DNA of 62,880 nucleotides, counting the filler, from Atractiella rhizophila (lineage: Eukaryota), in assembly GCA_021432655.1 (NCBI GenBank). It is 5 parts of 5 records of this genome, joined end to end, with 100 filler letters (N's around TTAATTAATTAA, not from the genome) between each part and the next. Parts side by side here need not be neighbours in the genome. Positions count along the whole stretch, not along the records: positions 25,309 to 55,899 come from MU271327.1; 4 more parts are not named here. The stretch is one strand, 5' to 3'. This document shows positions 14,532 through 61,408 of the stretch, one piece after another (within the stretch, counting starts at the first letter, position 1; each line of letters begins with the position of its first letter). Made by a program: the position numbers and the translations under genes. The notes below the pieces were generated by a model. It did no database searches, was not told the origin of the DNA, and saw only the letters and a program-made list of their open reading frames with translations.

Positions 14532-14611
14532 AAGCACTCAAACCAGTTTTGCGGACAAAGTTTCGCAAAGTTCACAGTACAGAAGAAACACAACAAAAAC
14601 CACCAAAGTCA

Positions 14612-15805: not shown

Positions 15806-16159
15806 ACCGTTCAAGAACATATCGTATAGAATGTTGACTGGTTAAAGAGCTTCCTGAGAAATTGGGCGTCGCTCCGAGTTGCAACCTTCTACTCTCTCTT
15901 TCAGAGAGTGCTTCCTGCTGCTTTAATCCGTTTTAATCCGTTGCAAGCAACTGTCTGCACTCTGCGGCCCTGCGACTGTGTAAGTTGAAAAGAGAAAACT
16001 GCTATCGCTGCAATGTGGATTAATGTCACATCATCGCATTAGTGCATTGAGGGGTATCAACAAAAAGGACAAGATATATGACAATAGATAAACTATTTAC
16101 TCTAACGTTTCCAGGCATCAAGCCCGCTTCCCGCAAGTTCTGACAAATTGTACCTTTCC

Positions 16160-18153: not shown

Positions 18154-18375
18154 CGTGCTGGCGTTAAGTAGACGTGTATGGAGTAGAGCTGGATAATCGA
18201 AAAGTGATTAAAAGGGAGGTCACGCTGAAATGAAGAAATTATGAAAGGAAAGATGGTGGATGAAATGTTGTTCAGACAAAGGACAGGCGGCGGACGACCC
18301 CAGATCGTTTCGATCGGATAAGCTTTGATCGTGAACTCACAATTTTTTCTGGTGCTCAGCACAACAACAGTTCCA

Positions 18376-21344
18376 ATGCCTCCTCGTCGCGCTGCCACGG
18401 CGAGCTCCCACACAGCCCAGAGAAAGCGCCAACAAAAACGGCTGAGACCACATTCTTCCTCCGCCAAACGCCATGTCAAAGCGATGTCAGAAGAATCAGA
18501 AGGAGGATGGGACAAGTCGGAAAGTGGTGGGGAGGAGAGGCGGGACAGTGTAAGGTTGGGAGAGGTGGGCAGTGAGGATGAGGACATCGATAGCGATGAA
18601 GCTGGAGAGGAGTCCATGTCGGAAGATGCAGCATCGAAATCCAAAGCAAAAGAGCATAAACCTAAAGTACGTGTTTTCTTACTCTTTGACAAATGGTTAC
18701 AAGCTTTGATTCTCTCGTGTAGACTAAAGATCCTGAATCTGAAGCAAACGACGAAAGAATGGGAGAGTTTTTAGATGTCGCAGACATGCTAGATTTGAAC
18801 ATGTATCCTGACACCTCTAATTCGGATTCGGACAGTGCAGAAGAAGTAGAGTCTGAATTTTCTGCTCCTTCCGAAGATGAGGAGCTAGGTTTGCCCAAAC
18901 TACAATCCTTCATTGACCGCCTCCCCAATCCTACAAAACGCAGCGCCGAAGGCGATTTAGAAGAAGTTGATAGCAGGAAGAAGAAGAGGCGTCGCATTTT
19001 GGAGGAAAAAGGGAAGCGTGGGATGAAGCTGAGGGAGAGTGGATTGCCGTTGGACTACAAAGTTTGTTCCTCCTATGCGCATCAGACAGCTCATGTGATA
19101 CATATGGGATAGGTAATAAGCTCACTCTGGACGACATGCTCTCCACTCTTCCTGAATCCCAAAACAGCAAATCCCTTCGGAACTCTCTCAAATCTCTCTC
19201 AGCATCCAAGAAGCACCCTTCTACGTCTACATCTCTCAAACCAAACCCTTTCACTGCTCCTGGTCCCCTCTCCGTGCCTCTCCCCGCCTCGCATCAAAAC
19301 AAGCACGAGCGGGCTGCCGCTTTCGAGCTTACCTCTCGCGAAGTGACAAAATGGGATGCGATCAGTAAAGTGATGCGCGGTCACGGTGAAGTCAAGGGCC
19401 TCTCTAATCGGGTGGTACTCCCTCTGCCAGCGAGCGATGGGCAAAACAAAGAGGGAAAGACTGCGGGCGATCTAGCAAGCAAATTTGTCCCAAAACGGGG
19501 AGGGATGGAGGATGAAATCTCTGCTCTTCTCCAATCTGGAGAGATGAGTAGTAGTCAGCTGGTTGCTCGGGAAGGGAAAGGAAAAGAAAGAGAGGAGAAA
19601 GAGGATCAGGCCGCTCGAGTTGGAGCACTTCGGCTGGAAAGAGACCTGCTGTTTCGGGCGGAGAGGAAAGCGAAGCGAGTCGCGAAGATCAAATCCAAAG
19701 CTTTTCGTAAGATCAAACGCAAAGCTCTCGCTGCATCTAAGGAGGGAAAGGGAGACCTTGAAACGCTGCAACAGCTCGACGCCTTGGATGGCGGAACTAG
19801 AGCAGCTGAAGAGTTAGAAAAACTTGAGCGCTTGCGAGCAAAGGAACGGGTGACACTACGACATGGAGGTGGTGGGAAATGGGCAACTAAAGTTGGAGGG
19901 CTGGAATTAGAAGGACTCGAGAGGGATGAGAGGGATGCAGCAGTGAGAGAGAAGGAAGAGTTGGCTCGCAAACTTCGGCAGAGGATAGCAGGGCCGGATT
20001 CCGAATCCGATGAAGAAGACGACGGAAAAGGAGATGGTTCAGATGAAGCTGAATTGGAAAGGTATGCTGCCGAGCTGGAACGTCTGAAGGCGGAGGAGAA
20101 TGACGGGAAGCTGAAAGGTCCTTATGCCATGAAGTTTATGATCCAGGCGCAGGCGCGTAAAGAGCAGGAGAGAGAGAGAGAGTTGGAACGGGTGCGAAAG
20201 GAGTTGAATGGGGAGCAAAGCGAGGATGAGCGACTAGAAGAGGAGTATCTGTTTAGAGAGAAAGTCGATGGAAATTTGGGGCGCCTTTTGTTTGGGAAAC
20301 AAGCTGTTAGTCTTTCCTTCCACGTTTATAAGGTAGCAGAACTAAGGGACAACAGGATCTTACACCGAAAGAAGGGCTGATCAAAACACCTCCAGAGGAG
20401 GCTCGCCAGCTTGTCTCGGACTCTCCCCCGCCAAGAATCGACATTCTGCCCGATGTTCCGTCCTTCCAAGCTCGTTCAGGGGAAGGGAATCCCTGGTTGT
20501 CCGCTTTTAACAAAGAACAACCGCTTCTCAAGCCGAAGAAAGTGCACGCAAACGGTCCACAGGACAAAATTGAGAAAAGGAAGGGGAAGACGGCATCTGC
20601 CCTCTTGAAGGACGCAACAGATGCAACGGTCGAGATCGATGTCAAGTCCTTTGTTGAGCCCGCCGCCCGAGCTAGCAAAAGAGAGAAAGGATCAAAGAGT
20701 GCTAAAGCTGACGGAGCGGCGCACAGTATTAACAAAGGAAGGAAGGAAGAATCTGAGTCGGAAGAAGACGGCGAGCAAGTGAAGTTTACGCAAAGAGAGT
20801 TAGTAGCTGAAGCTTTTGAGGGTGATGATGTAGTTGCAGTATGCTTTCGCTCCCTAGATGTTAGTGCGGTGATTTTCATAACTGGTGCGCAGGCTTTCGA
20901 AGCTGAGAAGAGGATGGAGGTTGAACGTGATGCACCACGGACGGAGGACGTAACGTTACCGGGCTGGGTAAATTCTTTGTCTCCTTGAGAATATAGCTGA
21001 CCAGTGTACAGGGTTCATGGACAGGCAAAGGCGTGAAGAAGCAGAAAACGGATAAGAAGTACATCAAAAACATTCCCGGCATCGACCGTAATGAACGAAC
21101 TGATGCAAAATTGGGACACGTTATCATCTCGGAGAAGAAGGACAAACGCGCAACAAAATATCTCGTTAAGGACCTTCCCTGGCCGTATACCTCTGAGGCA
21201 CAATTTAGGAAAACGATGGCGAGGAACATTGGGAAAGAATGGAATACTGCACAATCGCTGAGGGACATGACGAGAGATGGAGGGGAAGGAGGAGTAACTG
21301 TGAAGAGAGGTGCGACAGTGCGGCCATTGGAGGCTACAATTTGA
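18376..21344 (+). CDS. UTP14: SSU processome protein Utp14, multi-exon
   Basis: KAKRVAKIKSKAFRKI, RAKERVTLRH, QRELVAEAFEGDDV, LPGW|GSWTG, VIISEK...LPWPYTSEAQF...IGKEWNT. Confidence 0.92.
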
Positions 21345-21460: not shown

Positions 21461-24310
21461 TCACTCCTCCATCTTGATGTCGACTTCGGTGTCTTCAAAA
21501 CCCTCGATCCCAAAAACGACGTAATTCCACAGAGCATCCAGGTCCCAGCAATCAACCTTTCTACCTCCTCCGCTCAGTGTACACCCTACATTTCTTGCTC
21601 TTTCGCTGTTGAGAGCCATTGCGTCGGGGGCAAAGGGTGTGTCCAAGCGATACAACCTAGAATTACCCCCAGCACATTTATCAGATCCGTATGCGAACAA
21701 CACTGGATGTCAATAAATCAGTTCTGTCACCGACAAGACGTTGAACATTGGACTGACGCTGATTGCCGTCGTGGTAGAGGAGCATAACCCTTACCCACTT
21801 GTGAAACCATCCCCAATCGACGGGTTGATGTTCTTGTAGAAGAAGATCTTCGGTGGGAAACTCCAAAGGAACGCGACCAGTCGGAAAACTCAGTTCAGAT
21901 TTCCCAGCCCAGAATACCCCTCCGAAGCCCTCCTTAAATTTTTCATCATCGACATAATCAAGAACCATTTCATCTAGCTGCTTTCTCCCATTACCAACCT
22001 TTTCAAGTTCTGCGTTGATCATGTTGACACATGACGTTATGACTGACCACAAACAGTCGAGGATCCCAAACTCCACCACGATTTGATCCGACAGCACCGC
22101 ATCGCAGGGATCGTAAACTTCCTGCTCCTTCAGCTCCGTCCATTTTTCTAGCTTTTCGATCACATCATTTAAGTCATTATCTGTTTCGTCCCAGAATTTA
22201 TCGAACTCTTTGCGTTTCTGCTCATCAAATCCACCAGCTTGCCGCAGATATTTGAGCAGAGAATTGTTGTCGCTTGAATCGAACATTTCATCGAGGTAAG
22301 AACGTATTCGGCTGACAGCAAAGTCTGGACGGATTGTGGTCGGGGCTATATATTCATTGGGGTTGTCAGCCCTGGCGAAAGAGTATCTGAAAAAGGCGAT
22401 TGAGTCCCGATGAAGCTCCATTTCGCGCTTTGCTGCCTTCTCGAGACGTGAAGAGAGAAGAATGAGGAGTTTGCACGTCTGAATACTGGATTCCAGCTTT
22501 TCCAGGTCAAATCTGAATAGTTCGGATTGCTCCAGATCCATCGCAAGGGGAGATTGGAACCTGCCGAAATTTTTACAACAGGACATGGACCATAAGAAAC
22601 GCACCATGTCTGCTCATGTAGAAGTTCTTCGAGAATAATTATCGTCCGTTCCATGGCGGGCGAAAGACACCGGTAACAGAAGGTTATCAATTGCTCTAAT
22701 GTAGTCTGCTTACTAGCCCACCATTGATTGACAGACTGATACCAGAGTCAGATCCAGAAATCCAAAGGGAAAGGAAAACGTGCCCTCTCAGTTGCCTTCG
22801 AAGACATGAAATCTTGAAGAGGGAATGTAAATTTTCCCGTCATAAGTAATTTCATGAATTGTCCCTTGGGAGACAAACTTTCTATCCTTTGATATATTTA
22901 GTTCTTCCCCTTCAAGGGATAAATGAGCGGACCGTCATGACTCCCTGAGACCTTGTGTAATTTTGAGACCCATGCTTCCTTCAATTTCTCTCCATGGGTT
23001 AGACCGTCGATGAGCACACCAAGATTGTCTAAGCATGATTTGAATATCATCGCCAAACTGTCGCACGTCAAGGCCGTCCTTCTCAAACTAAACGGTATGT
23101 CGATTTCCCACTTCGTAATTTTGTTCCTTTTGCCACCTTCTCCCGCAAACTCTGAAAGCAGCGAAATTTCGACGCGTTCTTCGTCTGCTCGTAGTAGGGA
23201 AACTAGCTTGTTTCTCCCTGCACTCTGATCGCTAATGCCTGACACCGCCAACGAACCAACGTGCAAAGCGCCAGCGTAGAGAAGGTGTACGTATTTTGTA
23301 GTTACGACCAGAAGTAAGGTGGAGGGCATAGTGTGGGAAGGAAGNNNNNNNNNNNNNNNNNNNNNNNNNNNNNNNNNNNNNNNNNNNNTTAATTAATTAA
23401 NNNNNNNNNNNNNNNNNNNNNNNNNNNNNNNNNNNNNNNNNNNNACCAAACGTCGTCCGGCCGGATCACTACCTTGTGATGGTAGTTGTATGCTAGGACA
23501 AGCGTATCCTACCATGATTGAGCATCATCAGACACGAGGAGGATACTGATTACCACAAATCCGTTGCTCTGAGGTAGTATTGCTCCGTCTCTATAATCAG
23601 TAGGCGAGACGGAGCACTGAAAGATCTCTGGGACTATCTGATCTGCATTGTCAATGTCTCCGAACTGTGTCTGCTGCAAATGCTGCAGTGGGTTGGAGAC
23701 AGAATCAGCATTAACAGGTTCGGCTAGTTTAGAACAAGGGTGGAAGGTGACAGGCATGACACGCAGAAGTGTTCGGCCCTGGTGATTATTTCAGGAAGCT
23801 TGAGGAGGGTGGCAGTCACCAACGAACGGCCAGAGCCACAGACTATAACGGTGATACAATTGTTGCAATCACTGACCTGACCTCCCAAACACGGGCCTGT
23901 GGATCCTTCTGCAGGGTGCCTGAAATCGGATTCAGGAAGTCAATAACATTCCAACATCTGGACTGATAAGGAAAGGTCTGACGTGCGGTTCACTGTCCTC
24001 ACGACCCTTTGCAAGACAGCAAAGTCCAAACAAATCTCCCTTGTCCAGAAATTGATTTCTAAGCTGTGTGAGATTAGACACACAGGCTTGCCCTCTTTCA
24101 CTTCGCCTTTCGTTTGCTTCGTTTCTAGCATCGCAGGTAATGGTTGAGCTCTATTTTAACTTCGACAGATCATCTATTGCTCACAAGCTCAAAAGCTGCT
24201 AGGGAAAGGCACTCTGGCAAGATCATGCAAACGAAACAACAGTACGTTACTTTTCTGTAAGGTATACATGAGTACGGCAAGCAACGGCATGGAGATCAAG
24301 CTACTTCCGA
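21461..24310 (-). CDS. Anaphase-promoting complex subunit 4-like protein, interrupted by an assembly gap; ends approximate
   Basis: N-terminal SMPLLAVL...VLLFRL, central FMKLLMTG and LSPAMERTIIILEEL resemble the APC4 WD40 and long domains; recalled similarity only. Confidence 0.5.
23345..23444. other. Artificial 100-nt scaffold spacer N44-TTAATTAATTAA-N44 (also 25209-25308, 55900-55999, 61309-61408)
   Basis: The same six-frame-stop linker is centred in four N runs. Confidence 0.95.
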
Positions 24311-25208: not shown

Positions 25209-26433
25209 NNNNNNNNNNNNNNNNNNNNNNNNNNNNNNNNNNNNNNNNNNNNTTAATTAATTAANNNNNNNNNNNNNNNNNNNNNNNNNNNNNNNNNNNN
25301 NNNNNNNNCTTGACATCGTCTCGTAGAGCTCGGACGTCAGAGCGAAGGAAGGAGACATCGCCTTCGATACCTACGAGTCGCAGTGAGGCTTCTTCTTCTT
25401 CCCTTGCATCGCCATTCGAAGTGACGTTGTGCGAGTCGTTTCCCATGCTTCCTACCCTATCTTCTTGTTCTTGTTCTTGTAGCCAAGTAATTCTTTCCAG
25501 TGGTTATCCTAACCTGTATAGCTATCCCACTTCGCTCCTAGCTCCTCTGATGTGGCTCTGGTGTATAGCGTATTGCAGTGATAATCAGCGAGAATAAGGA
25601 AAGCGAGAACAGGCAGGAGAAGGAGAGACGGAAAGCAAAGTCAGAAAGTAATAAAGTCGGGGACGTGCCGCCAGACTCGGAGGTGTGCGCGAGTAACGCA
25701 GGATTTAAGACGCCGAGCGAGGTGGAGACAGCGCCTTTCGTTGTCCCTACAATGGCCATTCTATTACACCACAGCTATCGCGCGTTATCTGCTTAGCTTC
25801 CTTTATCTCGCCTGGTTTGTTGTTGCGGTCCCAAGCCTGAGGGGAACTTTAGATTCGCCGCTTTCTGCCAGCATGAGATAATCATGGCGGCGTTGTGTAT
25901 GGACTCACTGCCGGTGTTGTCGCAGATAAATCAATAATCAATAATCCATTCTTGTGAGGGGCAAGGTAGAAAAGAGGCAAAACACGAATACTGAGCTGGA
26001 ATCATGATATCTCCAACTCCTGATTATGTCCAAATCAAAACCGTGAGCAAATTTACGCTCTCCACACTGGAGTAGTCGCCATCGCCAACACGATACGCAG
26101 GCGGTATCTCCCAACCTACTGCTCCCTCCCCAAAATAACAATCCAACTTCCCCTCCGAATAGCACCCAGACGCCTAGACGCTACCCGCTTTGTTTTATGT
26201 CCATTCAAATTGTATTTATGTCCAGCGACTACCTCACGTCCCTCTGAGTATACCGGGTAAGCGGGATCCGGTCTGTATCCATCGGTCTTCACTTTCGTGG
26301 CTGGTATTGAGAGGACGTTCGAAACACGAACAAGTTTGCTTCCACTTGTCGATTGAATTTGGAATAGATTCCAAGGGAGAGAAGACGAAAGCAGGAAGAG
26401 TGGCAGTGGTGGATCTCTCATCAAAGCCCAAAG

Positions 26434-31735: not shown

Positions 31736-32889
31736 GATGAAGGGTGGGATGGAGAAGTCGATCGGATGGACACGGGAAACAAATAACAAAAGCCTCGAGT
31801 TGAGAGGAAGGCTGAACCGTAGTCCATAGTCCTGTTTGTAATCTCGCCTCGTGTCATAATGAGGTCTCGTGACGTCAATCCGAATTGACCTTTCTCTCCA
31901 CAAATTGACCTTAGAATTTCCTCAACCACAGCCTTTTCCAGGTTTCCGCCTACAAAGCTACACTCTGAGGTCGCTCGCTATTCGCCAGCTACAAGAACAG
32001 CCTTCTTAGATCAGACCTGCACTTGGCACTGGAATTGGGAACGGCAGAAATGGCATCGGCAGCGTTACCACCACCGTCACCAATGATTTTGCCGTCCGTA
32101 GTCGACGCTGGGAGCGCTGGAAGCAATGGAGAGAATGTAGAGTACAGACAGGGGAAGAAAGAAGGTAAGCGATCTCCTAATGCCTTGTTGGGAGAAATGT
32201 CGGCTTGCGAACTTTGCACATTCGGGGTTGCTTTGAGCTTGTTCTTGTTTGAGAGAGCATTGGAATAAAGAAGACTGGCGTCTTGAGCTTAGACTGGACA
32301 TTTCAGCTCGATATTGTGCTTGGTGTATGCAGGAGCTACTTTCAGATGTAACATGTCGTCATGCGTCACCAGCATATCCATATCTAAGGCGTCGTGTCCG
32401 CATCCTGTATAACAAGAGGTGACTTCAAGTCAGAGAATATTTTTGTTTCTACAATATATGGGTACCTAGTTGTGTGCTTTTACAAACTCAAGGTGATTGC
32501 CATTGGACTATGTTCCACCTCTTCGTTTCTCACGAAGGATGTTTGTTGGAGACAGTGAAAGTTCAAGACTTTGTCTCTTTACCAAGTAGTACTTTTTGCA
32601 CCGTATGGATTACAAGCTGCCAGTGCTCCATCGTCATGCGCTCGCTTCCCGAGATTGTCAGGGAGAGATGTTCTACCAACCATGCGCATGCTTCTGAGCC
32701 ATGTGGAGTCAGAGTCATCTGTTAGCAGGAGGTGCGACCCTTTCGAAAGCTTTGCCAAAGAAGCGAACGGAGCGTACGAAGGTCTCGCTTCCAGAAATTT
32801 TTGACGTCGGCGATGTCATTGAGCTGATGACGACTCCCTCTCCGCAAAAGATATTATTGGATTTCTTCGTTGGTCACTGACTTTCCTCC

Positions 32890-34401
32890 ATGAATGCAGG
32901 GATCCGCGCCCGTCGTCACCGCAAACGCACCTCTGAGCTCGCCTCTTCCACTCCTTCTACTTCCACCTCCGCGCAACCCACAACACCTCAAACACTCCTC
33001 AACATGGCCTACGCCCTCCATCTCAGCATCCGTCCCCGCCGTCTATCATCCCGGCGTCCAAGCAACGCATCCTCTTCTATGTTGGGATGGGAAGCCGGAG
33101 AGAGGGCGTTAGATGCCATTGGAAGCAGAATGAGAGGAAGAGGGAGAACGGTCGGCGAGGTCTTAGGATTGAAGGATACGAATGGGAAACATGTAAAAAA
33201 GGAAAAGAAGGAGAAAGCGAGACCGAGCGGAGTGGAGGTTAGGAGGGAGAGTGAGAATACTGAAGCGGCTAGTGAGATTGCAACGCCGAGTGATGTCGGA
33301 GATGCGGGAGCTGTTGTGGTCATTGATGAGGATGACGAGGTCGTGGCTTTGGACGATTGGGGAATGGGACTGGGATTTGGCGTCGGTGTGGCGACTAGTT
33401 CGATGAGGCTTCCTGGGGATGGTTTAGGGATGGGTTTAAAGATGGGAGAAGGGGAGGAGATATGTTTGCCAGCTGCCCCTCGTCTAGGACCAGTAGCAAG
33501 TCCGCAATTACAGCCTTCTCCTTTCATGGCGGCGATGTCTCTTGGCGCGGACTATTTTACCACCTCTTTTTCTTCCGCCTCCATATCCACTGAAACACCG
33601 CTCACCATCCCTCCTTCCACATTCTCCCCTCTCTTGTCCCCCGTCCCCTTCCTTCCAATCACTCCTCAACTCATCCCCCTCGGCAGCACAGGCATGATCG
33701 ACCCCTCACCTATGCCCCTGTCCCCGACGACGAAGACGGGAGATTACTTTGGACTGGCGAGGATAGCGAGCTTGAATAGGCATAAAAAGAAGCGAGCGGA
33801 GAGGGAAGGGAGGTTTGAAGACTCTGCGGCCGCGACACCGTTGCTACCCATCACCCCTCAACTGGGACCCACGAGCTTACTGACAGACCCTTCTCCTTTC
33901 CCTCTTTCGCCAGTGGGAACCCCCGAGTATTTTGGGATAGGTGGAGGACTGGGAAGAGCGGGAAGTCTGAAATCAAAAGCGGGGGCAATGGTGAAACAAC
34001 CTCCGACCATCCGCGAACGAAGCTTCGAAGGAGAAGAAGGGCTTTCTCAACGTCACGACGACCGGGATGAATCGGCACACGAGGTTCCATCTGGACCATC
34101 CACTTCAACCTCGCATCCACCGCTACCCCATCGTTCTTCGTCCCAGCGTCCAGACTGGGTCCCATACCTCCTTGTTGGCGAATACGGATATCGAGATTCG
34201 GTCACAGCTTGGGGAGGAATGGGAGGCCTCTTGGGACTGCTCTTTCACACTTTTGGATTAATCTTCTTCATCCTCTTCCATGTCGCAGACCTTCTGGCCG
34301 CAATCATAACTCCTTTGCTGGCGGCATTGGGAATTTATGTCTATGAGCCGCTAGGGATTGAGGAGGCGGAGAAGAAGGTGCGACGTCTGTCTGGTGGCTG
34401 A
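32890..34401 (+). CDS. Hypothetical Ser/Pro-rich protein with C-terminal hydrophobic segment
   Basis: 503-codon ORF; internal repeat P(F/L)LPITPQL...DPSP(M/F)PLSP...YFG occurs twice. Confidence 0.7.
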   Translation: MNAGIRARRHRKRTSELASSTPSTSTSAQPTTPQTLLNMAYALHLSIRPRRLSSRRPSNASSSMLGWEAGERALDAIGSRMRGRGRTVGEVLGLKDTNGKHVKKEKKEKARPSGVEVRRESENTEAASEIATPSDVGDAGAVVVIDEDDEVVALDDWGMGLGFGVGVATSSMRLPGDGLGMGLKMGEGEEICLPAAPRLGPVASPQLQPSPFMAAMSLGADYFTTSFSSASISTETPLTIPPSTFSPLLSPVPFLPITPQLIPLGSTGMIDPSPMPLSPTTKTGDYFGLARIASLNRHKKKRAEREGRFEDSAAATPLLPITPQLGPTSLLTDPSPFPLSPVGTPEYFGIGGGLGRAGSLKSKAGAMVKQPPTIRERSFEGEEGLSQRHDDRDESAHEVPSGPSTSTSHPPLPHRSSSQRPDWVPYLLVGEYGYRDSVTAWGGMGGLLGLLFHTFGLIFFILFHVADLLAAIITPLLAALGIYVYEPLGIEEAEKKVRRLSGG

Positions 34402-34737: not shown

Positions 34738-36439
34738 TCAACCACTCTTCGCTTTCTCAGCCGCCTCTGCCGCCTCACGCTCACGGTGCCACTACAAATT
34801 GATTAGCGAATCAAATATGGGAGAATAAGGTGAGCACTGACGGCCATGGTAATCTTGACCGCTTCCTCCATCGTTACCAATGGTTCATAACCAAGGAACA
34901 ACCTCGCCTGCACATCATCATTAGCCTAGCAAGAGGAAAGGAATAGGAGAAAGAAGCGCACCTTCTCAATGTTGAAATACCGATCGACAGTCATATAAGT
35001 GGCCGTCGCTCTTGTCAACGGCGCAGGCTGTCCCTTCAACCAACTCGCAACCTCTCCTCCCGCTCCAATAAACCAACTCAGGAATGCGGGAACGGCCGTG
35101 ATTTTCTTTGGGGAGAAACCATTGTAGGCCTTCCACAAGCTCCTAGCGAAATCCCAAAAGTAGATTGGCTCTCCATTGGTGATGAAGTAGACTTGACCAG
35201 CGATGGGAATTGGAGCATCGGGTTCGGGATAGTAAAGGTCAAGGGAGGCTGGGTGGAATTGATCGAACCTGTTCCGCGAGGAGGGCAGCGGGGGATCGAT
35301 GGGGAAAGAGGATGAGAGGGCTTGAGATACAGTGTAGGAAGGCGGTGGAAGTGTTTGAGAATTCTCGTTCACAAGCGTAAAATCGTGGCTTTCGCTATCG
35401 GAGGATTGATCAACGCCTTCCACCGTCCTTGAGTTGGGCATAGGACGTCTTTCCCATCCGATGTCAATGTCTTTTGAGCGCTCATCGAAGATGGACCAGT
35501 CCGTGATATACTTGTCCAGCTTCTCCATGGCGAGTAGATGGCCATGGACGAGGTTGTCAACGAAGGTAAAATCTTGAAGATTATCATTGGAGCCGATCTG
35601 GAAGCCGGTTTGCCCATTGTGGAGCGCCTGAAGTATGCGATAGGACACTTGACGGTCTCCAGGTCTAATACCTCATGAGCTACGAGAACTGGACAGATGC
35701 TGAGACATACCCAAAAATGCCGGACGGACGAATAGCGCAAGTCAACAAGCCATCTTTTCCGTTTGCAGCGATGACGGCTTGCTCGGCCAAAGCCTTGAAA
35801 TGGACGTCAGTGAGAACACAGGGGATTACGACAATGTTCGAATTTTGAACAAAAGGCGGAAATGTACACGATCTAGAGAAGATAATCTAAGGATTACCCT
35901 CGAATCTGTTCAACACGTACGTGGCTGACCAATTCGCAATCGTGGATCTGAAAGGAGATTTGGGAGAAATTCTGCTCTCAAATCTTTCAAAGCGTATAAC
36001 CCCCAAGAGAACTTGTAAGAGGAAATGTGGCACAACTTTAGTTCTGAGCTGGAATACAACGATACGCCTTCAGATAAAAGCTTTGAAAGACATTATTTGA
36101 ATGATTCCGAACATCCAACCAAACGTAGTCACACGAAGTTGGAAGAGAGAGGCATCTCAAGCATTCTGCAGCTTGTTTTATTGTGTGATTGAACAATCTC
36201 GCTCAACCTTCGATCTAGAGAAGGCAAGTTGATTGCAAATCAATACAATATCTTGAGTTGTCCATAACTTCTCAGGTACCTTCGCGAAGTATTCGGTACC
36301 ACAGTGTAGGATGGCACTTGAGCCCCGTTCACAGGTCAACGGCCCGCCTGCACATACGATGTACAATAAAGATCAAGCGGTCACCAACTGTAAACTTTTT
36401 GGGTAGAGCAAGACAATTCTACAAGATGGTAAGTGTAAA

Positions 36440-36480
<41 letters not shown>

Positions 36481-37943
36481 ATCCAACCAAACGTGACTAC
36501 ACGAAGTTAGAAGAGAGAGGCATCTCAAGCATTCTGCAGCCTGTTTTATTGTGTGATTGAACAATCTCGCTCAACCTTCGATCTAGAGAAGGCGAGATGA
36601 TTGCAAATCAATACAATATCTTGAGTAGTCCATAACTTCTCAGCTACTTTCCCAAAGTAATCGGCACCACAGCGTACGATGGCACTTGAGCAACGTTCAC
36701 CAGCTCAAAGGCGCGCCTGCACGTATGAGGTACAATAAAGATCAAGTGCCGACCAACTGTCAACTAGTTAGGACAGAGCAAGCCAACTCTGCAAAATGGG
36801 AAGTGTAAACGACTCTCAGCCCAGAGCTGAACATTAGACCACGGCGGGCGAGATCCATGCTCCTTGAGTTCTTGAGGTCAAACACAAGCTCATGTTCATC
36901 TGAATCAAGGGACCAAACTTGAACTGTTCAAGTGTTGCAGTCAACGATGACTTTTGGATGAACATTGTGCTTTTCTGAAGATTGAAAGCTGTGTTATCAG
37001 CTTTAGATCCAAGGCAATATGCGCCGAAGCTACAGTCATGTACTAAATAATGATGATGCCAACACTCCATGACAACTCAGTCAACAATTGTCAAATTGCT
37101 TCTGCTCAAACTCAAGAACCCAACATGAAATCACTAAGGACACAACTCTGGTCTCGCGTTCTTTCCAGTATTGCACTCATAAGGGAGAAAGAGAAAGGAG
37201 CTCAGTTTCCTCCACAATTTCATTTGAAATATTCAATCCTCAATGACACCTAAAATTGATCACATGCAGGACTCCTCACGTTGAAGGTTACGGTGGCCAA
37301 AAATGGCTGTCAGACAACATTATTTGTGCCTGTCCAAGTAAATAATGCGTGCAAAGGTACGCCATTTTGAACGTACTATGGACGGGGACGAAAAGTAAGA
37401 AAAGATTCTGAACTTCACACATCTCTCTCTCTCTTTCTCTCGCCTTCAGATACTAGACACTAGACGTACCTTTGTCCTGTTATAATCATCCGGCCAAGCA
37501 TCCGGATAGGGAACCCTCTCGTCCACATTCCTCAACCCCACCCCAGAATCCAACACCTCATTCCCCAACACGACCCCACTCGAGCTCGTATACACAAACT
37601 TCCTAGCCCCACGCTTCACACACCAAGCGATAGTATGTTCCGTCCCCTTCACATTCACAGCGTCGCAAATCTCCTTTCCGCTAGCCAGGTGCGGAGAAGC
37701 GGTATGGAACACGACGTTGGGGTGCGGATCGAGTTTGAGGTCTTCGAAGGGCTGGGTCAGGTCCAGTTTGTGGTATGTGCACCGAGGAGGAAGCGGACTC
37801 GTCGCTGGCGCGGGGAAGAGGTCGAGGGAGTAGATGGTCGCTGTGCGGTAGCGGGAGGAGAGCGCCTTGAGCAGGTTTCCGCCGAGGAACCCGCTGCCGC
37901 CGATGACGGCGTAGACTTCGGGTGGAGAGGGGTTGTAGGGCAT
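34738..37943 (-). CDS. ERG26: C-3 sterol dehydrogenase/decarboxylase (3-beta-HSD family) with a 1676-nt intron at 35794-37469
   Basis: VIGGSGFLG, VFHTASP, VNVKGT, VYTSSSGVV, YNRTK|ALAEQ, AIRPSGIFGPGD, DFTFVDNLVHGHLLA, YFITNGEP. Confidence 0.9.
36110..36810 (+). repeat. Two ~330-bp direct repeats (36110-36440, ~36478-36810) separated by A39
   Basis: Both units start aacatccaaccaaacgt and end aagtgtaaac; the A tract spans 36441-36479. Confidence 0.9.
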
Positions 37944-39028: not shown

Positions 39029-39930
39029 TCAATGTTTCCCTCCAGTTTTACCTCCCCTCACCGCCCTCGGCCTCCCCCCTTTCTCTCCGCTCCTTCTCGT
39101 GCCCATCCCATGAATAGATCCTCGTCCTATAGAACCGTTAGAGCCGCTTCCCCTCCTCGGATTCGATCCAGGAATCGTGGACAAGATGTCGTTGCTCTCC
39201 CCTCGGAGACGACGAGCCAGGAGGATATCTTTTGGCATTACTGTGACGCGTTTCGCATGGACGGCACATAACTGTACCGCATGATGATGGGTCACCATGT
39301 GCGAGAGTGTCACGGCGACTGCCTCAATAGGGAGAACTCACATTCGCGTCACTGAACAAGTCGACCAAATATTGTTCAGCCGATACCTTCCTCACACCAA
39401 AGGAACAGGGTGGTCTTCATACAAGCTCTATTCAGGGAGGAAGAAGATGGAGACAGACCTGCAATGCGTCCATTGCAGACACTTGGAAACGGATGTCGGG
39501 CTTGAATTCGGTCGCTATCTCTCTAACGAGTCTTTGGAACTACATCCGCCCACCAAAAGGTGTTGAGCCCATCAAAACCTCCACTCTAGTTAGCAGAGAG
39601 AAGGGATGAGGAGGACGCACGGGAAGTTTCCTGATCAGGAAATCTGTGCTTCCCTGGTATTTCCTGATCTCCCTCAACGCTACAGTTCCGGGTCTATAAC
39701 GGCGATGCTTCGAACCAGCCTCTGTTCCATCGAATTTCTTCAGCAACATGTATCCCTTCACTGGTAGAAGGGAGCAAGCAAAGGATACGGCGCACCCTTT
39801 TTGTTTGTTTGACTCAGTTTCTTGTCCGTTTTGATTGGGATATATTTTCTTGCTTGTTGCTGGCAGCAGAATGTCGGACCTTTTCGACGTTGGGAAAAAT
39901 GAGAGAACACAGTACTTTGGTGCGTGCCAT
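39029..39930 (-). CDS. Divergent histone H3 variant with RG-rich C-terminal extension, 6 exons
   Basis: Spliced product [127 protein letters not shown] plus extension. Confidence 0.88.
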
Positions 39931-39999: not shown

Positions 40000-42055
40000 T
40001 AACCAGGAGGTGAAGGCAGCGAGAGGGGAAGGCTAACAGACGGAAAGCTCAGGAATTGCTTCTCAGGAGTTTGTAGTGAAAGTAGTTCACGAGCTNNNNN
40101 NNNNNNNNNNNNNNNNNNNNCTCAGGACTACTTATGTTAGCATGTTAGCATGTGAGTCTACTTCCTGGCGGACAAGCGTAACATGAAGTAAGGCGAGTGA
40201 GCAACGCGTAAGTTCGCTTGTTCGCGAACATGCAGAGGTAGGAACGGGCGAACGTTCCGGCGTTCTTCGCTGGTACCTTTGTCCGCTAATCTTTCCTCTT
40301 CACGTTAGGTTGCACGAGACTCCAAGTAACGATGGCATATAGCTAGCTCTAGGAAGGAAGGGAATTCACGCTGATAGCTTGAAGTGCGGCGACGTAGGTT
40401 CCCGGGAACGAGGCAAAATGTTCAGTTTTGTTTATAAATTCTGAACCCCTCCGAACGTAGTGCTTGGGACGAAAGGCGTATAGGGCAAGCAGTCATACTA
40501 ACGACAAAGGGGAACGCTCAGAACGGCGAGACGCGTTCACTTCACATACGCGCGATTAGTTCGATGAAGGACACTTGCTACACGGTTGTTGCCGAACCTG
40601 ACGCTTCAACAGATAGTGGACAGCTGGAAGGGTTTTAACTCGCGCCGAAGGAAAGTATGTTTTGGCTTCGTGGAGGTGTTTTCCACCCAACAGTCTAAGG
40701 TAGAGGAAGACCTTCGCTAGCACAGGACTGGCAACTGGAAGGGGCGACACGGGAGCACAACGTCTACCTTTGACCGTGTTGAAGGAGTCTACTTAATATG
40801 TAGCAGCGCAGTTGAACCTCGGCTGCACCCCTCTGACTTCTTGTTCGCTGCAGCGCTAGGGCTTCTTCTAAAGAGGAGAGGGCAGCGGGGAGCTATTTTG
40901 TAACGTTAGGTTCAACAGCTTATGGCGAGCTAACATGGAGCGGTAGCAAAACGACCTCGCAAACGAAGCTTTACTTCGTGGCAAGAGCATGCTGCTATTG
41001 GACAGCTCGAGTCTCGTCTTCGACTTCAAACTCTTTGTAGATGACGTTCCAAGCAGAAGAATATGTGCCCAGTCTAAGGACTTGATTACGCTGTTTGTCT
41101 GCAGCGCGGTGAACGTAAGCTTGTTATAATGAGCTTGCTCTATTTCTGTCACCCTATGCGCGAAGTTTGCCTTTTACCTCCACTCGGATTTCGAACAATG
41201 GGAGTATTCTACGCATCCTGAATGCTTCCGCATCTAGACCGAATAAATGTGGTATAGACAACCTTAGACCAAACGAGGTTTGAGACACCCGGGATTTAAT
41301 GTAGGACTACTTTTCCGGTAACAACTGGCTGAGACGTCCTATAACACGCTAGTTATGGAACCGCCCAAAACGGACGGTTGCGAAATAGGAGTGCCCTTCC
41401 TGTTCCCTCTGCTCTTAGAAGTAATGAATTTGATAATCTCAGTACGGAGAGGAGCAGGAGCAGGTGAGGCCTTCCGTTGAAAGCTGTTGAATAGGTAGTA
41501 GGAAGTCGAGTGTGTACGTAAATAACTAGTTAACGGAGCCGGCCTGCAAACCTTTCGCTACGAGCTTGACCGAGACCTTGTAAAACCACGCGAAACCGCC
41601 TCTTCACATTGGCTCGCTCTCACCGACTCTTTCGCTGTTGAACGGGTAAACTAACATTCAGAGTAAGGACAGGAACCGTTTGTCCGAGTACGATTAACAC
41701 CGGGTTCGCTGCTGACAGATTGAGAATGTGGACAGCTAAACCACCGAGGGAGACGACATGCAGGTGTAAGAGTTTGTCCGGGGTAATAGGATTTGCCTAC
41801 AAATCAAGCCTCTTTGTAATGTTTGCTAAGGAGGGTGTTCTCCCGTCGTACCTAACAGCAGAGAAGTGTCTATAGTGTAAAATAAGATGTAATTAATGCC
41901 TCCGCCGGCTTCTAGAGTGTCGGTAGCTGCCTGTGGAGGTCACGTGCTCTGTGGTCGATACCCGGCTTAGATGGAAAACTGCGCAACTTTTCTTTCAGCT
42001 GCGCACTGCATAAAACTCATAAAACGGACAATATGAAAAGCTGAACTTTTACTGA
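40000..42055. other. Mirror-oriented (reversed, not complemented) segment flanking a 25-N gap; left edge approximate
   Basis: Gene-like only when complemented without reversal; 40064-40095 is the exact reverse of 42056-42087. Confidence 0.88.
40496..41860. CDS. Zn(II)2Cys6 transcription factor readable only in the left-to-right complement; 3' end approximate
   Basis: Complement from 40496 reads MIAVSP-CESC-RSAQVK-C-MRANQATS-CERC-ANNGLD-C (CX2CX6CX8CX2CX6C), followed by GT...CTRAY...AG introns. Confidence 0.8.
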
Positions 42056-50799: not shown

Positions 50800-53580
50800 T
50801 CAACGGAGCCTTCTATCTGAAAGTGATACCTTCTTCGTCTCCAGACTCCATAGAGCATCTTCGAATAAGTCCTCTTTCTGCTTTCTCTCCCTCCTCGCTC
50901 TCACGGCCTGGATGCCACCCGATGGAGTCGTCGCGCTATCTGCAGTCGACGGTCGACTCTTCGCACGTGCCGTCCGAGGAGGTTCATAGTCAAATGGCAT
51001 TTGACTCGCTGGACTCCTGGGGCTCTTTGGTATCAACGAGAAAGCGCTATATGTTGGACTTTGCAAGTTTGACATAGGACTATGAGGAAGCTCGGGATCT
51101 GAAGAGGCAGCTGAACCTGGTAGGCTGCGACCAACATTTGAACCAACAAGCGATCTGGGACTGAGGGGTGGTTGCGGCTCGAGAGGCGGGGGGATTGGTT
51201 TCGTTTTCCGATATGAGTCCGTGTCGGAATACAGGCTCGCAGAATATAAGCTAGTCATCGCAGTGCTTCTCCCCGTGGAAGCGGACGAGGTAGTCCCACC
51301 TGTTGAAGGACGTGGTCGATTTCGTGGACGAGGAGGGGCGGGGAGCGCAGTCCGGAAGTCCCGTTCGTGGCGCGAAGAGGAGGAAACACGAGGTGCCATC
51401 ATTGGTGAGTAAGGCGGGAACTCTTCCATTCGCCTCATTATCCTGCCTCCAATGTCAGCTTCGGAGAGCAAAAAGGCCCTCAAACTCACTCTTCGTTTCT
51501 CACGATGGGCTTGTTAATCCCAGCGTCCTCTTTCTCCACTGTCCAGCTCTTTCCAGGGCCCAAAGCCAGAAAATTAGTTTGCGCAGGTGCAACTCTCGCC
51601 TCTGTCGCACTCCTTTCCCTTCCCCTCCCTCCTCTGTCTCTCTCCCGCTCCCTCCTCCCACTGGCATAGGTCTCCACATCGCTCCTCCTCCCTCCTCCAT
51701 ACCCCGATGACTCTGCCCTTCTTCTCGGTGGTTTCCGCGCATCCCTCCCAGGTTCGCTCCTGAAGCTAATGTTACTGTCGTACTCCCTATCCATATCCTT
51801 TCCATAATTAGGAAAAGCCTCTCTCAGCGGATCTGGAACTCCTTTATCACGGAACGAGACTTCAAGATTGATACCAAACATCCCAAAGACTCCTCCCTTC
51901 GTGCTGAGCTTCTCTGGCCGCTCGCTGCGCATCGGAGTTGAAGGGACTGGCGGGACAGGAGGAGCGGGAACGGATGGTAAGTCCTGTGGCTGAGCTTGAG
52001 GAGTCGAGAGAGTTGCCGATGACTTTTTGCGCGTGAGAACATTCGCAAGTCTCGAGAAAGGGCTAGTGGACTTGGAGCTGGTGGAACTGTCGGCGATGTC
52101 CATGGGGGAAGATTGGATGGGAGACACCTGTGGGGGATAGTGTGCTTGGGAGATTGTGAGTTGAGAAGAGGAAGCAGGAAGCATGGGAGTCGGTGAGGCG
52201 TTGGCGGAGGTGTTCGCTCTTCTCCGTGAGAAGTAGGTGGAGGATTGCTTCCGCAACTTCCCTCCTGGGCTGGAACCGTCCAATGCTGAATTAGGGCTGG
52301 ATCCGGGCACCCATTCTTCCCTCGCTCTGTCCCTCTCCGCATCCGTGAGCATTGAGTTCGTACGACTGTTCAGAGTCGCCCTTCTAGACCGTGCGATGTC
52401 GAAATCGTCACCTGACGAAAAATCGTCTCCTCCAACCAAACCGCTAGGAGTAGGCATAGCTTCCTCCCTCCCAAAAGGGAGTCCAAGTCCCACCACCCTC
52501 TTGAAGTGACCACTAGCCTTTTTCCCTAAGGTCTTGACGACACCTGAACCAGCACCGGTGACAGCAAAATCCGAGGGGTTGAAATTAGGACTAGACTGGA
52601 TGAGAGGCGATACTATCGGGGTACTCTCCGAGCGGCTGAGGAGGTGAACGTGATGATGTGGGTGGAGTTGCTGTGCATAGATTCCTGATGGTGGGGACCC
52701 GATTGGATCCTCATACGCCGCCCGCGAGTCGCGCGATGACGATCGTTCTACCCGCTTCACTTTCTCCGGTGCTGTGCTTGGTCGCCGCTCGTCCCTCTCC
52801 CTATCTTCCTGCCCCAATCCGTGCGGGAGGTCGGCGTTTGTGCCATCTTCGTCTCGATAGAAACTTGTGCGAGTGCCTTCCACTGAAGCGCGTGACGAAT
52901 GCGCAGGCTTAGATATAAGCCGCTTGTATGCAATAGGCGAAGCGGTGGGAGGTAGACTGGACTTCCGCGTCGAGGATAGGGACAAAGAAGAGGATGGAGG
53001 GGATGGTGGGGCGAACTCAACCACATTCTTCGGTGAAGAGGGAGAAGAAAATGAACGTCGGATCGGCGGTGGAGAGAGGACATAGGGTTTGAGTTGGTTG
53101 GAAGTGGAGGGTATGGGATCAACGGGAAAAGCGTGGCTAACTGGACTCGATGACAGTGAGCTTGTTGACGATGTTGACTCCCCTAAGATGCTCTCAGATT
53201 CCCTTCAATGACCCGGAATGTTAAGACAGCGCACCATGTGTATGCCTCCTCATGGGATGGTTCCCACCGACAGCTCCGAGACTAGCGGAGCTCCCGAGAC
53301 CCCTCTTCATCTCCCCATTCCCTCCTCCAGCTCCTCGTTCCATCCTCGAAGTGATGTCATCATGAAGGATCAAAGGCGGTGGTATCCGTTTGATGCTTCC
53401 GGACTTCGAGAAGGTTATTGAGCTGGTAGTCGGCGCCGGCGAAGGTTCTGGGTCGCTCTCTGCGTCGTTATCAGAGAAGAATACCTGACCCTGTCTCCTT
53501 CGTCGGACGGTGTCGTCGTCCATAGAATAACCGCGGGGAAAGATTGAAGGTGTTGTCGCAGTTGGCGGATGTCGAGACAT
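50800..53580 (-). CDS. Hypothetical Ser/Pro/Arg-rich protein, about 3 exons
   Basis: ORFs 53221-53580, 51486-53024 and 50800-51489 can be joined by short GT-AG introns. Confidence 0.7.
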
Positions 53581-55999
53581 GGTTCCCTTGTTAAGAAGGT
53601 AAGAGACATGTCAGTAACCTACTAATAATCCATGTAATATTGGAAAAGGTGCCTACCGCATCACTCATGAGCGGTTGGGGAGAAAATTGGGGCGAGTACA
53701 AGAAAAGATGTTGGTGGTTCTGAGGTCGTGAGAGGTTGATGACTTTTAACGATGATGACAAGGTCGGGCTTTGCATCTCCCAACTTTCCTCTAACCTGGG
53801 ATTATACTCTCTGCCCATATTCGTGTGTCTTCTTCCTGCGGTTCTCTTCCCTTTTCTTGCAAACTTGTTCGTGAAGCAATCCCTGGGATTTTACCTCGCT
53901 AGTTGTCGACTTTTCACAGGATTTGGGCTAATTTCTGGGGCAAAAGAGATAAATGCAATCCAAGGTCGGCCTAAATCATTCACTTATCGAAGCAAGCTTT
54001 CGCAGTCGCAGGGCAACGATCTGATATCTCGCAAGTTGAAATTCGGAACGCGGTTGAGCGAGAGGCAAAGATTGTCTCTAACCGTCTCCTCGCCTTGTCA
54101 TCACAAATAGGGCACGCGTTCTCTCCCACGCTGCCTTCCTGCCGCTTCAATCTCTTTCCAACCCAATTTCCTCCGCCCACGTCCGTCACACAGGAATTCT
54201 TCTTCATTAATCCGATTGATCCCCACCGAATTAAGTCAGGCCCGTACGGATCAGACAGGTGTGGGTCTCGCACGTTCCTCGCTCAGTGCCGTTGGCACAT
54301 TGAGGACTTAGAAACCATCCCGACAGAAGGTATTGACCTCCGCATGGGCACAAAGTGGATACAGTTGGGACCTCGCGTTCTCTCGGAGAAGCGGCGGGAC
54401 GAGAGCATTGCAACTTGAGAGGGTCGGCGACGAGCGGGATGATGAACGGCTCGGTAGGGTTGAAGATTCTACCGGATTTGTTGTTGCTGTCAATTGGAGG
54501 CTTGCCGCAGTAGGATATGATAATANNNNNNNNNNNNNNNNNNNNNNNNNNNNNNNNNNNNNNNNNNNNNNNNNNNNNNNNNNNNNNNNNNNNNNNNNNN
54601 NNNNNNNNNNNNNNNNNNNNNNNNNNNNNNNNNNNNNNNNNNNNNNNNNNNNNNNNNNNNNNNNNNNNNNNNNNNNNNNNNNNNNNNNNNNNNNNNNNNN
54701 NNNNNNNNNNNNNNNNNNNNNNNNNNNNNNNNNNNNNNNNNNNNNNNNNNNNNNNNNNNNNNNNNNNNNNNNNNNNNNNNNNNNNNNNNNNNNNNNNNNN
54801 NNNNNNNNNNNNNNNNNNNNNNNNNNNNNNNNNNNNNNNNNNNNNNNNNNNNNNNNNNNNNNNNNNNNNNNNNNNNNNNNNNNNNNNNNNNNNNNNNNNN
54901 NNNNNNNNNNNNNNNNNNNNNNNNNNNNNNNNNNNNNNNNNNNNNNNNNNNNNNNNNNNNNNNNNNNNNNNNNNNNNNNNNNNNNNNNNNNNNNNNNNNN
55001 NNNNNNNNNNNNNNNNNNNNNNNNNNNNNNNNNNNNNNNNNNNNNNNNNNNNNNNNNNNNNNNNNNNNNNNNNNNNNNNNGATCAACAGACAACACACAG
55101 TGAAGGAACACTTTGACAACTGGCTTCCAAGGTTGCAGCGGCCAGATTGAACAATCAATAGATCATTTGAACGCGGTTAACAGCGCAAAGTTATGACAAG
55201 AATGTTCTGGACTTGTTGAGGGCATGTTGCTCCATGCAATCCTAACAGTATTGATGACGGAGTTCCGCCTACGGTTTGAGGGAAACGTCAAAGAAACAAC
55301 GGACGGGACTTTTCATGACTTTTAAAGTCAACGCCCGCATTCATTTGCTGTACCTTCCTTACATGCACTTCCTCCATGTTAGCGCTTCTGGCTCTGCCAT
55401 GAAAAACGTGTTGACCGGCTTCCCGCTCCTGAAGTCGTGCTGCAAAAGAAGAGAAGTATGCATGCACAGTGATGCATGCAAAAACTGGCATGGACACGAA
55501 CGCGACGACATTATTCAAAATACTGTTTACGCGGCTCCGATTCCCGTCCGCTCTGCTGCGGGAAAACAGCGCAGGAAACAGCATATGTGATCCAATGATT
55601 AGATATCAATATTAGTTCATCAATATTAGTTCAATATTGATCAATTTCCACGGCTGAATGTTAGGTGGTAAATATTGCACCAACCTCAAATCTTCTCGAT
55701 AGATAATATGGCCATATTTTGGCGCGGCGTTATAATCGAGCGCACAACAAGGAGAACGTTTCAAAACTCAGGTATACTGCACACGGTACCCTTCGTGACC
55801 TTGAATTTCTTGCGTTCTGGATTGGTTTTGAGCGAATTCGTCGATCCAGCGAAAGACTTCATGATGCCACTGTAAGGAGTTCTTCGGGTTGAGGACCTGN
55901 NNNNNNNNNNNNNNNNNNNNNNNNNNNNNNNNNNNNNNNNNNNTTAATTAATTAANNNNNNNNNNNNNNNNNNNNNNNNNNNNNNNNNNNNNNNNNNNN

Positions 56000-59362: not shown

Positions 59363-61408
59363 CTTTACCTATACCTTCTGGCACTTTCTCTGACAAACGC
59401 CGGTTGGGAGGGGAAGGAGAGCCTGAGACGCAACTTGAAAGAGGATGGGGAGGACATTATAAGACATTTCTGTGATTCTCAAGCACCGGTGGAGTGGCTG
59501 TCGAGCAGCGTGTGCCAATTGACTGAAAGGTCTTGACTCTGGAGATTGCTTCTCTTCCAATCAATCGAATCCCATCCTCCGACGCGGGTATCTTATCTCA
59601 TGCGCTGGCAATATCGCGCCGTCTCGCGTTTATCGTGTGCCTTCTTCAGTTGGAGTACTTAGGTTTCAACAGCCAAGAGATGTCGAAAGCAAGGTTTCGT
59701 CCTTTTGTCACCTTTTGTAAACGCGTAACTTGTCTCAATTGAAAGCCAAGGACGATAAGAATCTGGTGGGAACGGCAAATCGCGCAGTCGCGGAGCGGGG
59801 GAAGGCAAACTGTAGTCTCGCAATTAAACATTTGCACGTGGTGTGGCACATCCCGTGACTCTATAATAGAAATGTTGCACAAAACTGGGTAGAGCAGAGA
59901 CATAGCAGAGCGTTGGGATGTGCATTGTGAGACTGATGAGCCCTCATAACGTTGTTCTGAGTGCTGGTTACTACCTTGAATTGTCAACCGGCGTGCTCAG
60001 CAGCCAACCCGAGGTTTGAATACGAGGACAGGATTTAACCGCATTGCTCCCCGAGAGGAGGCTCTCCCACCGAGGATATGTCCATTCATGTCAAAAAATA
60101 TCTACTTCGTCTGCGATAGAAACGCGGGTGATTTTCACCATATCGTAAACCCGCTGATAACGGGATCCCTCTCTCCTCCTCTTCACTCGCAAAATGAAAT
60201 GAAAAGACGAAGTAGGGCTTGTTCCCCTTCTCTCCACTACATTTGTAAGTGGGTTCATTTGAGTTGGGATCGCTCTCGCTATCACCTCACTCTTAGGAGC
60301 TTTCATCGCTCCTTCCAATTCCACTCCAAGCTTTTCTTCTTTCCTGTCACAAGACGACTTGATAAGCTTAATCTCCTAGTTCACCCCGCTGCATTGCAGT
60401 ATTCCAAAGTGTTCACACGGAACGAGGGACCGTTCAGGTGTTCGTGATGTATTACTTCTCTCCGCCTCCTTCAAACACTTTGGGAGGCATCCAAGGAGCT
60501 TGGAAGTGGATATAAAGAGAGCAAAGGAAAGAAGACGTATTCATGACAGCGAGCCTCAGCGTCTAGTGATGACCATCCTGATGAACCAGAACAACGGCAG
60601 AACAGTAACGTTGTAGTAGTGCACCTGGAAGACAAAGATACTGGGTCTTTGATACTCTGTCCTTCACTCTGGGTAAAGCAGTCGTTCCTCAATCAATACG
60701 AAGCCAAGTTTTCCTCTCGTCGATAGGAAGAAGTCAACGGAAAATTAGAAAATGGTAGATGAGACTTCCATCCTTTTATGCCGAGGACGAATACTTTCAC
60801 TGCATATTGGTTGCACAATCTAGAATGGATGGTGGCAAATACAGACTTCTAAGTCAATCAATAATGAGGAGAACAACTTTGCTCTGTCTCCTGCTTCGTT
60901 TTGTCTACAATGGCTTACTGGAACAGAAAAAGCAATGCACTGAGACAGAAAATTGTTTTAGATTCATTGTTTTCGCATATTGCAAGTGCACAAACTATTA
61001 TCTGATCCGCAATCCACGTCTATTGCGACAACCAAAACACATTTCAATTCCTGTCTGATGATTTAGTCTTGAAAATTGGAGTTTAACCCTTCTGTGCGCC
61101 TCTCTCAGGCGAGTTGACTGCTTACAAATTCTAACATACTTCTCAGAAGCTGGGTGGATAGATGATTGAAATCCCTGAACACATGTTTTATATATGTTGG
61201 ACAGTCATATCCCTGACGCGTAATTTAGACATTTGCTCGGGACGTACCACATCAACTAACTCAGCAACTCTCCTATACTTCAGTCCACACTTTCATTGCA
61301 CTTCCCTCNNNNNNNNNNNNNNNNNNNNNNNNNNNNNNNNNNNNNNNNNNNNTTAATTAATTAANNNNNNNNNNNNNNNNNNNNNNNNNNNNNNNNNNNN
61401 NNNNNNNN

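Follow-up and report, generated by a model that had tools for sequence, protein, structure and literature searches.

The window, which is the whole 62.9-kb stretch of DNA that we analyzed, comes from Atractiella rhizophila, a basidiomycete of the Pucciniomycotina, and holds a single H3-like gene. This gene occupies 39930..39029 on the minus strand. As modeled, its six exons, separated by five GT...AG introns, total 549 nt, enough for 182 codons and a stop, and the predicted protein has a mass of 20.3 kDa. Its parts and the annotated surroundings are given below in the order of transcription. H3 residue numbers follow the conventional scheme, anchored on a reference H3 and on the solved-structure alignment.

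39916..39930, minus strand: exon 1, five codons from the ATG that read MARTK, with the donor GTACTG directly after it
39860..39915, minus strand: intron 1 of the splice model, 56 nt, GT..AG, phase 0, between K4 and Q5
39796..39859, minus strand: exon 2, 64 nt, opening with QQARK and coding the rewritten Lys-rich tail
39722..39795, minus strand: intron 2, 74 nt, GT..AG, phase 1, holding the ATG (about 39749-39747) at which the deposited 165-aa model starts
39621..39721, minus strand: exon 3, the tail end, alpha-N with YQGST (G at K56) and the start of alpha-1 to P66
39540..39620, minus strand: intron 3, 81 nt, GT..AG, phase 0, between P66 and F67, in agreement with the deposited model
39459..39539, minus strand: exon 4, alpha-1 with Q68 kept, then loop 1 (canonical length), F84 and the beginning of alpha-2
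39387..39458, minus strand: intron 4, 72 nt, GT..AG, phase 0, after Q93
39342..39386, minus strand: exon 5, the middle of alpha-2, 15 codons
39272..39341, minus strand: intron 5, 70 nt, GTGAGT..AG, phase 0, after N108
39197..39271, minus strand: exon 6, histone-fold part, from the end of alpha-2 through loop 2 and alpha-3 to RRLRGE
39032..39196, minus strand: exon 6, C-terminal extension, 55 codons
39029..39031, minus strand: stop codon TGA, ending the joined frame
40096..40120, no strand: assembly gap of 25 N located 166 bp before the ATG
34.9-38.0 kb, minus strand: 3-beta-HSD-type dehydrogenase, the downstream neighbor of the H3 variant gene
8547-20377: a cluster of BING4 (BING4CT domain), His-tRNA synthetase, class Ib (Trp/Tyr) tRNA synthetase, Ric8/synembryn and Utp14, in a part of the window other than MU271327.1

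An earlier note on this DNA had described an intact six-exon open reading frame with a complete histone fold. Joining the six segments reproduced the same protein, its fold was ungapped, and we found no internal stop, frameshift or broken splice site across the 182 codons and five introns. Given the 25-N gap upstream, the promoter region of the gene may be incomplete in the assembly. GenBank holds a model of the gene as KAH8923262.1 ('histone-fold-containing protein [Atractiella rhizophila]', 165 residues), to which the product of exon 6 is 100% identical. The deposited model starts at the ATG within the modeled intron 2, reads through into exon 3 without an ARTK tail, and agrees with the six-exon model from exon 3 to the stop.

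The gene sits in normal gene-dense DNA, among ordinary housekeeping genes; the cluster at 8547-20377 lies outside the MU271327.1 part (25,309-55,899), and parts of the window need not adjoin in the genome. There is no H4 gene beside the H3 variant gene in the window. We considered a repeat or transposon context for the gene and rejected it: the sole repeat was an unrelated tandem duplication at 36.1-36.8 kb. This duplication has a unit of about 295 nt (36110-36403 and 36478-36772, 81-91% identical, spaced by 368-369 nt) and falls between two ORF blocks that match the 3-beta-HSD family, so that it probably lies inside an intron of that gene. Two further stop-free frames may be lineage-specific genes: 32881-34398 on the plus strand (506 aa) has no match in Pfam at E <= 0.01, nor has 51489-53204 on the minus strand (572 aa) at E <= 0.001. 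A gap of 555 N at 54526-55080 accounts for the low GC content (0.327) at 54-56 kb and for false long ORFs in all frames. The runs of 44 N, 12 bases and 44 N at 23345-23444, 25209-25308, 55900-55999 and 61309-61408 are the filler joints between parts of the window.

Histone fold, C-terminal extension and second copy

Several comparisons place the protein in the H3 family. KAH8923262.1 scored 130.8 bits against Pfam PF00125 (Histone), for which the cut-off is 26.4 bits, and a second copy of the gene, KAH8913764.1, scored 125.4 bits. When solved H3 chains were searched with phmmer, query residues 9-110 aligned without gaps to H3 residues 33-134. In a MAFFT alignment of 17 sequences, alpha-N, alpha-1, L1, alpha-2, L2 and alpha-3 were collinear with H3, again with no gaps. 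An AlphaFold monomer built from this alignment had helices that match alpha-N, alpha-1, alpha-2 and alpha-3, at low confidence (mean pLDDT 58.5). We conclude that the predicted product is an H3-type histone-fold protein.

We then compared its core with those of other H3 proteins. The comparison set was made from 298 proteins by removing three self or paralogue entries and all proteins whose ungapped identity to the reference 94-residue core fell below 50%, which left 95 distinct ungapped H3 cores. The change of K56 to G in YQGST, reported in the earlier note, falls in exon 3, and both deposited protein models carry it; position 56 is K in 88 of the 95 cores. The residues said to be retained are indeed kept: the solved-structure alignment and the 17-sequence alignment agree on Q68, F84 and the length of loop 1. 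Among the 95 cores, Q68 is found in 94, F84 in all 95, and Q85 and Y99 in 93 each, and the window copy keeps all four.

Positions 86-90, the patch that chaperones use to tell H3.1 from H3.3, read VSAMD in the variant. The signature of H3.3 is S31 together with AAIG at 87-90. The variant does not match this signature of an H3.3-type replacement variant, with VSAMD at 86-90 and no equivalent of position 31 in the modeled tail.

The C-terminal end of the protein was absent from the earlier description. The frame continues for 55 residues past RRLRGE, about 53 beyond the normal end of H3, and this extension consists of 27% Gly, 15% Arg and 15% Ser, with a pI of 12. In the AlphaFold model it begins with a short helix and goes on as low-confidence coil, and it is otherwise predicted to be disordered. 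Searches of protein collections and metagenome contigs found no relatives of the extension outside A. rhizophila. A literature search for H3 variants with C-terminal extensions returned only CENP-A, H2A and general papers and no precedent. The basic C-terminal extension is arguably the most unusual feature of the variant.

The 90% identity cluster of KAH8923262.1 contains two other entries. One is an 81-aa ORF call on a 9,188-bp contig, identical to exon 6. The other is the second A. rhizophila copy, GenBank KAH8913764.1, a protein of 176 aa on a 4,844-bp contig that is 95% identical to KAH8923262.1. Over about 151 codons the two copies differ by five substitutions and one 3-residue deletion: Q85H and Y99H fall in the core, and three substitutions together with the in-frame deletion fall in the extension. 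The second copy is open through both core and extension, so that the extension is kept in frame there as well. Q85H and Y99H suggest that constraint has loosened, at least in the second copy.

The N-terminal regions of the two deposited models do not correspond. KAH8913764.1 starts with MARTK, continues with 27 residues unlike the modeled tail, and then joins the shared AGSKHRRY. Part of this 27-residue stretch matches intron 2 of the window read in two different frames. Hence, a frame-shifting indel appears to separate the copies within the stretch modeled as intron 2, as judged from the two protein models set against the reading frames of the window.

Relatives, constraint and the possibility of decay

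We searched protein collections and metagenome contigs for relatives of the variant. The product of exon 6 gave 21 matches among 71 candidate proteins of 44-140 aa, all at 31-33% coverage, and 10 matches among 133 candidates of 141-2000 aa, where coverage exceeded 36% for the self protein alone. When KAH8923262.1 was compared with proteins of 90-289 aa, none of the best 120 of 7983 matches (8000 scored) was more than 78% identical, and the top scorers among the matches listed were fused double-H3 models. A HMMER search of 1.84 billion representative sequences returned 18,126 matches and no orthologue; KAH8923262.1 was its own representative. Four of these matches ran past residue 125, and each of them proved to be canonical H3 to which an unrelated tail had been added by read-through or fusion.

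Metagenome contigs were scanned with six peptide patterns, five of them variant-specific. The 169 pattern matches yielded 68 confirmed loci, with full-core identity of at most 74% and none extending past query residue 123 of 165. A locus that is 86% identical along a short segment was set aside, since it is an unrelated H3-like gene, split by introns, that has CenH3-type changes. Intron positions in twelve split metagenome H3 loci were viewed and left unused, most of these loci not being H3-canonical. The gene had been called a lineage-specific variant, and with no orthologue in four large searches it does look lineage-restricted, by which we mean that it was not seen outside the species in the collections searched, where the Atractiellomycetes are barely sampled.

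The searches also brought up a feature of public annotation. Many models named 'histone H3-like centromeric protein CSE4' or the like, of 270-565 aa, appear to be fused tandem H3 genes (or H3 plus H4) rather than CenH3. They top the similarity rankings for any H3 query, and one that we inspected reads H3+H4+H3.

Against the consensus of the 95 cores, the variant is equal at 74 of 94 positions and changed at 20 (about 21%). The changed positions lie in more variable columns (mean entropy 0.763 versus 0.491, p = 0.008 with 100,000 permutations), in a set of proteins chosen by their likeness to the query, a bias that may raise the variability of some changed columns such as 125 and 130. Changes that favor variable columns are the pattern expected under purifying selection, and the core of the variant fits such a history. 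Seven of the 20 changes are to residues found in none of the 95 cores: K56G, L60F, Q76T, L82I, S86V, E94V and A98Q.

Is this a real species- or lineage-restricted H3-type variant gene of A. rhizophila, kept by selection? Arguing for it are the intact 182-codon frame with GT-AG introns, the Pfam score, the ungapped fold with its helices, the preference of changes for variable columns, and the retention of Q68, F84, Q85 and Y99. The second copy, in frame through core and extension, argues for it too, as do the putative indel in intron 2 and the location of the gene among ordinary genes and not repeats. So does base composition: A makes up 56% of exon 2 and T 9%, whereas the five introns are T-rich (24-33% T, 15-23% A). 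It is weakened by the lack of an orthologue in the searches, the conflicting deposited N-termini, Q85H and Y99H, the seven changes unseen in other cores and the absence of an adjoining H4 gene. Weighing these, we regard the real-gene account as the likeliest one, at about even odds.

The main rival sees the locus as a duplicate that is decaying or has no function: one or two unprocessed H3 paralogues that drift with their frames still open, while the product does nothing in chromatin. Most of the observations just listed against a real gene can be read in this way: no orthologue in the searched collections and no relative of the extension there, no H4 partner nearby, core residues unseen elsewhere, and histidines at two near-invariant positions of the second copy. 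The loss of K56 would also be expected of a decaying gene, as would a degenerate, A-rich tail and an annotation that recovered no full H3-like model for either copy; the extension itself could have appeared once the ancestral stop was lost and translation read through. However, a core that has diverged by about 21% contains no stop, frameshift or broken splice site, the extension is in frame in both copies, and the substitutions favor variable columns. By our rough estimate, several indels and stops should have accumulated had the drift to this point been neutral. We therefore consider decay possible but doubtful. Were the gene not expressed, it would be an ordinary decaying duplicate.

The N-terminal tail

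As modeled, the tail begins with ARTK and QQARK, carries Y at position 10 and has lysines at positions 4, 9, 14 and 18. It is 7 residues shorter than the core-tail spacing of the reference H3. These features had all been claimed before, together with the absence of K27 and K36, and the sequence of the modeled exons does read so. They rest, however, on exons 1 and 2, which the deposited models of both copies read differently: neither KAH8923262.1 nor KAH8913764.1 uses the modeled exon 2 as such.

The ARTK N-terminus is encoded by the 15-nt upstream exon and is present in the deposited model of the second copy, while it is missing from KAH8923262.1. We enumerated the open GT-AG models that lead from MARTK to the core and found 99 with at most two introns of 40-250 nt, or 73 if introns are at least 50 nt. 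The junction of K4 with QQARK is kept in three of the 99, and those three differ in the placement of the second intron. Among these open models, the modeled tail is preferred only because of its likeness to ARTKQTARK. A frameshift origin of the tail was rejected, as the other two frames of the exon 2 DNA bear no resemblance to the canonical tail.

Perhaps, then, the gene is real and exons 1 and 2 are not its true 5' end? On this alternative the product would be an almost tail-less H3 beginning from the start in intron 2, or would come from some other splice form. It would account for KAH8923262.1, which begins 17 residues before Y41, and for the different residues that follow MARTK in KAH8913764.1; the many open splice models and the mere 15 nt of exon 1 also speak for it. 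Yet MARTK followed by a GT donor, and then by an in-frame AG acceptor directly before QQARK, reproduces eight of the first nine residues of H3. Across all six frames of the window, MARTK is found a single time, at this gene, and the second copy keeps it. The A-rich, T-poor composition of exon 2, set against that of the introns, also favors the modeled tail. Introns 1 and 2 (56 and 74 nt) are similar in size to the well-supported introns 3-5 shared with the deposited model (70-81 nt). Exons of 15 nt are commonly missed by gene predictors. Hence, a different 5' end seems to us somewhat improbable, and we lean slightly toward the six-exon tail model as correct.

K56G, the fold and the C-terminal extension are independent of the tail model. 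If the modeled tail is right, the contexts of K27, K36 and S10 are missing, and it follows from the missing residues that the marks placed there could not be carried.

Relation to known H3 proteins and a possible mechanism

The least favored alternative takes the variant to be the centromeric histone (CenH3/CENP-A/Cse4) of A. rhizophila. With CenH3s it shares an H3 fold and a diverged tail, here diverging after residue 9, and it carries T107A, a change common in CenH3s. Its C-terminal end, RRLRGE with L125, is common to H3-like proteins with an altered loop 1 or Q68, some of which also have short C-terminal extensions. We found eight such proteins through this shared C-terminal motif; seven have insertions in loop 1 and three have lost Q68. 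The variant, unlike these, has no loop-1 insertion and keeps Q68 and F84. In the 17-sequence alignment KAH8923262.1 is 66-71% identical to six canonical-length H3s but 51-60% identical to the eight altered proteins; a further H3 with a normal loop 1 and a longer tail is 68% identical.

A longer loop 1 is a criterion for CenH3, as given in PMC11633173. Loop 1 of the variant has exactly the length found in the six canonical-length H3s. The alpha-1 residue Q68, whose replacement is another CenH3 criterion, is Q. A phmmer search of all solved structures gave 176 distinct sequences at E <= 1e-5, of which the best 60 were all named H3, H3.1, H3.2, H3.3 or H3t and none CENP-A or Cse4. Two diverged copies would also be unusual for a CenH3. 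These data bear out the earlier view that the gene does not encode a CenH3: the predicted protein is not a typical one, and we judge a centromeric identity very unlikely. A literature search found no paper tying Atractiella to CENP-A and no relevant one tying it to histones, and the kinetochore survey PMC7794384 nowhere mentions 'Atractiella' in its main text or five xlsx supplements.

The canonical and replacement H3s (H3.1, H3.2, H3.3 and the single ascomycete H3) share with the variant an identical fold length, the 74 unchanged core positions and, as modeled, the ARTK start. Unlike them, the variant has K56G among its 20 core substitutions, VSAMD at 86-90, a tail shorter by 7 residues with no K27 or K36 context, an extension of about 53 residues and no pairing with an H4 gene.

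Specialized H3 variants that do without particular marks include Arabidopsis H3.10 and H3.15 and primate H3.Y. The concept is the same, that of a tissue- or stage-specific paralogue without K27 methylation that resets or shields chromatin; the lineages are unrelated. To our knowledge, none of these plant and animal variants joins the loss of K56 to a long basic C-terminal extension.

How might the Atractiella protein work? The variant most likely derives from an H3 gene with introns that was duplicated at the DNA level. The functional steps that follow are inferred from established H3 biology. Through its essentially complete H3 fold, the protein would pair with H4 and enter nucleosomes. K56 is a hallmark site for replication-coupled assembly in fungi. 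With G at this position in the DNA entry/exit helix, the K56-acetyl signal of the Rtt109/Asf1 route could not be written, which would point to a different route or timing of deposition. If exons 1 and 2 are used as modeled, the protein would keep an ARTK..ARK start and have neither K27 and K36 contexts nor S10. The basic, disordered tail of Gly, Arg and Ser, about 53 residues long, would exit on the nucleosome face, where contacts with DNA or with the acidic patch of H2A-H2B would be possible.

A bolder version of this mechanism, which we offer as an improbable speculation, pictures 'mark-blind', self-tethering nucleosomes. These would bypass the Rtt109/Asf1 route and escape Polycomb, Set2 and Aurora, while the Arg/Gly tail anchored the acidic patch or linker DNA, compacting or protecting chromatin in a particular life stage (e.g., spores or the endophytic phase). 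In this speculative picture, the extension would exit near where CENP-C reads the C terminus of CENP-A. If it were true, an H3 with a long, functional tail at its C terminus would represent a novel route for adding function to the nucleosome core.

In ascomycetes a single H3 is the rule (PMC3380720; PMC6703697), and PMC6703697 states that most ascomycetes are without H3 variants and that Basidiomycota have a variant H3. According to the same paper, the closest characterized fungal case, H3V(CTG) of Candida albicans, is expressed and functional and differs from canonical H3 at three positions only (31, 32 and 80). Like the Atractiella variant, it is clade-restricted, non-centromeric and outside H3-H4 gene pairs (PMC6703697). 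The predicted Atractiella protein is by this comparison far more diverged: about 20 core residues and most of the tail are changed, and a long extension is added.

Non-centromeric H3 variants are rare in fungi, and the one well-studied fungal case differs at three residues only. If the Atractiella gene is expressed, it would make nucleosomes unable to carry several standard chromatin marks, and it would offer a testable way into how variants are deposited and into the chromatin states found in an understudied class of basidiomycetes. The variant would be a natural experiment in which H3 residues a nucleosome can spare and in what the H3 C terminus can gain.
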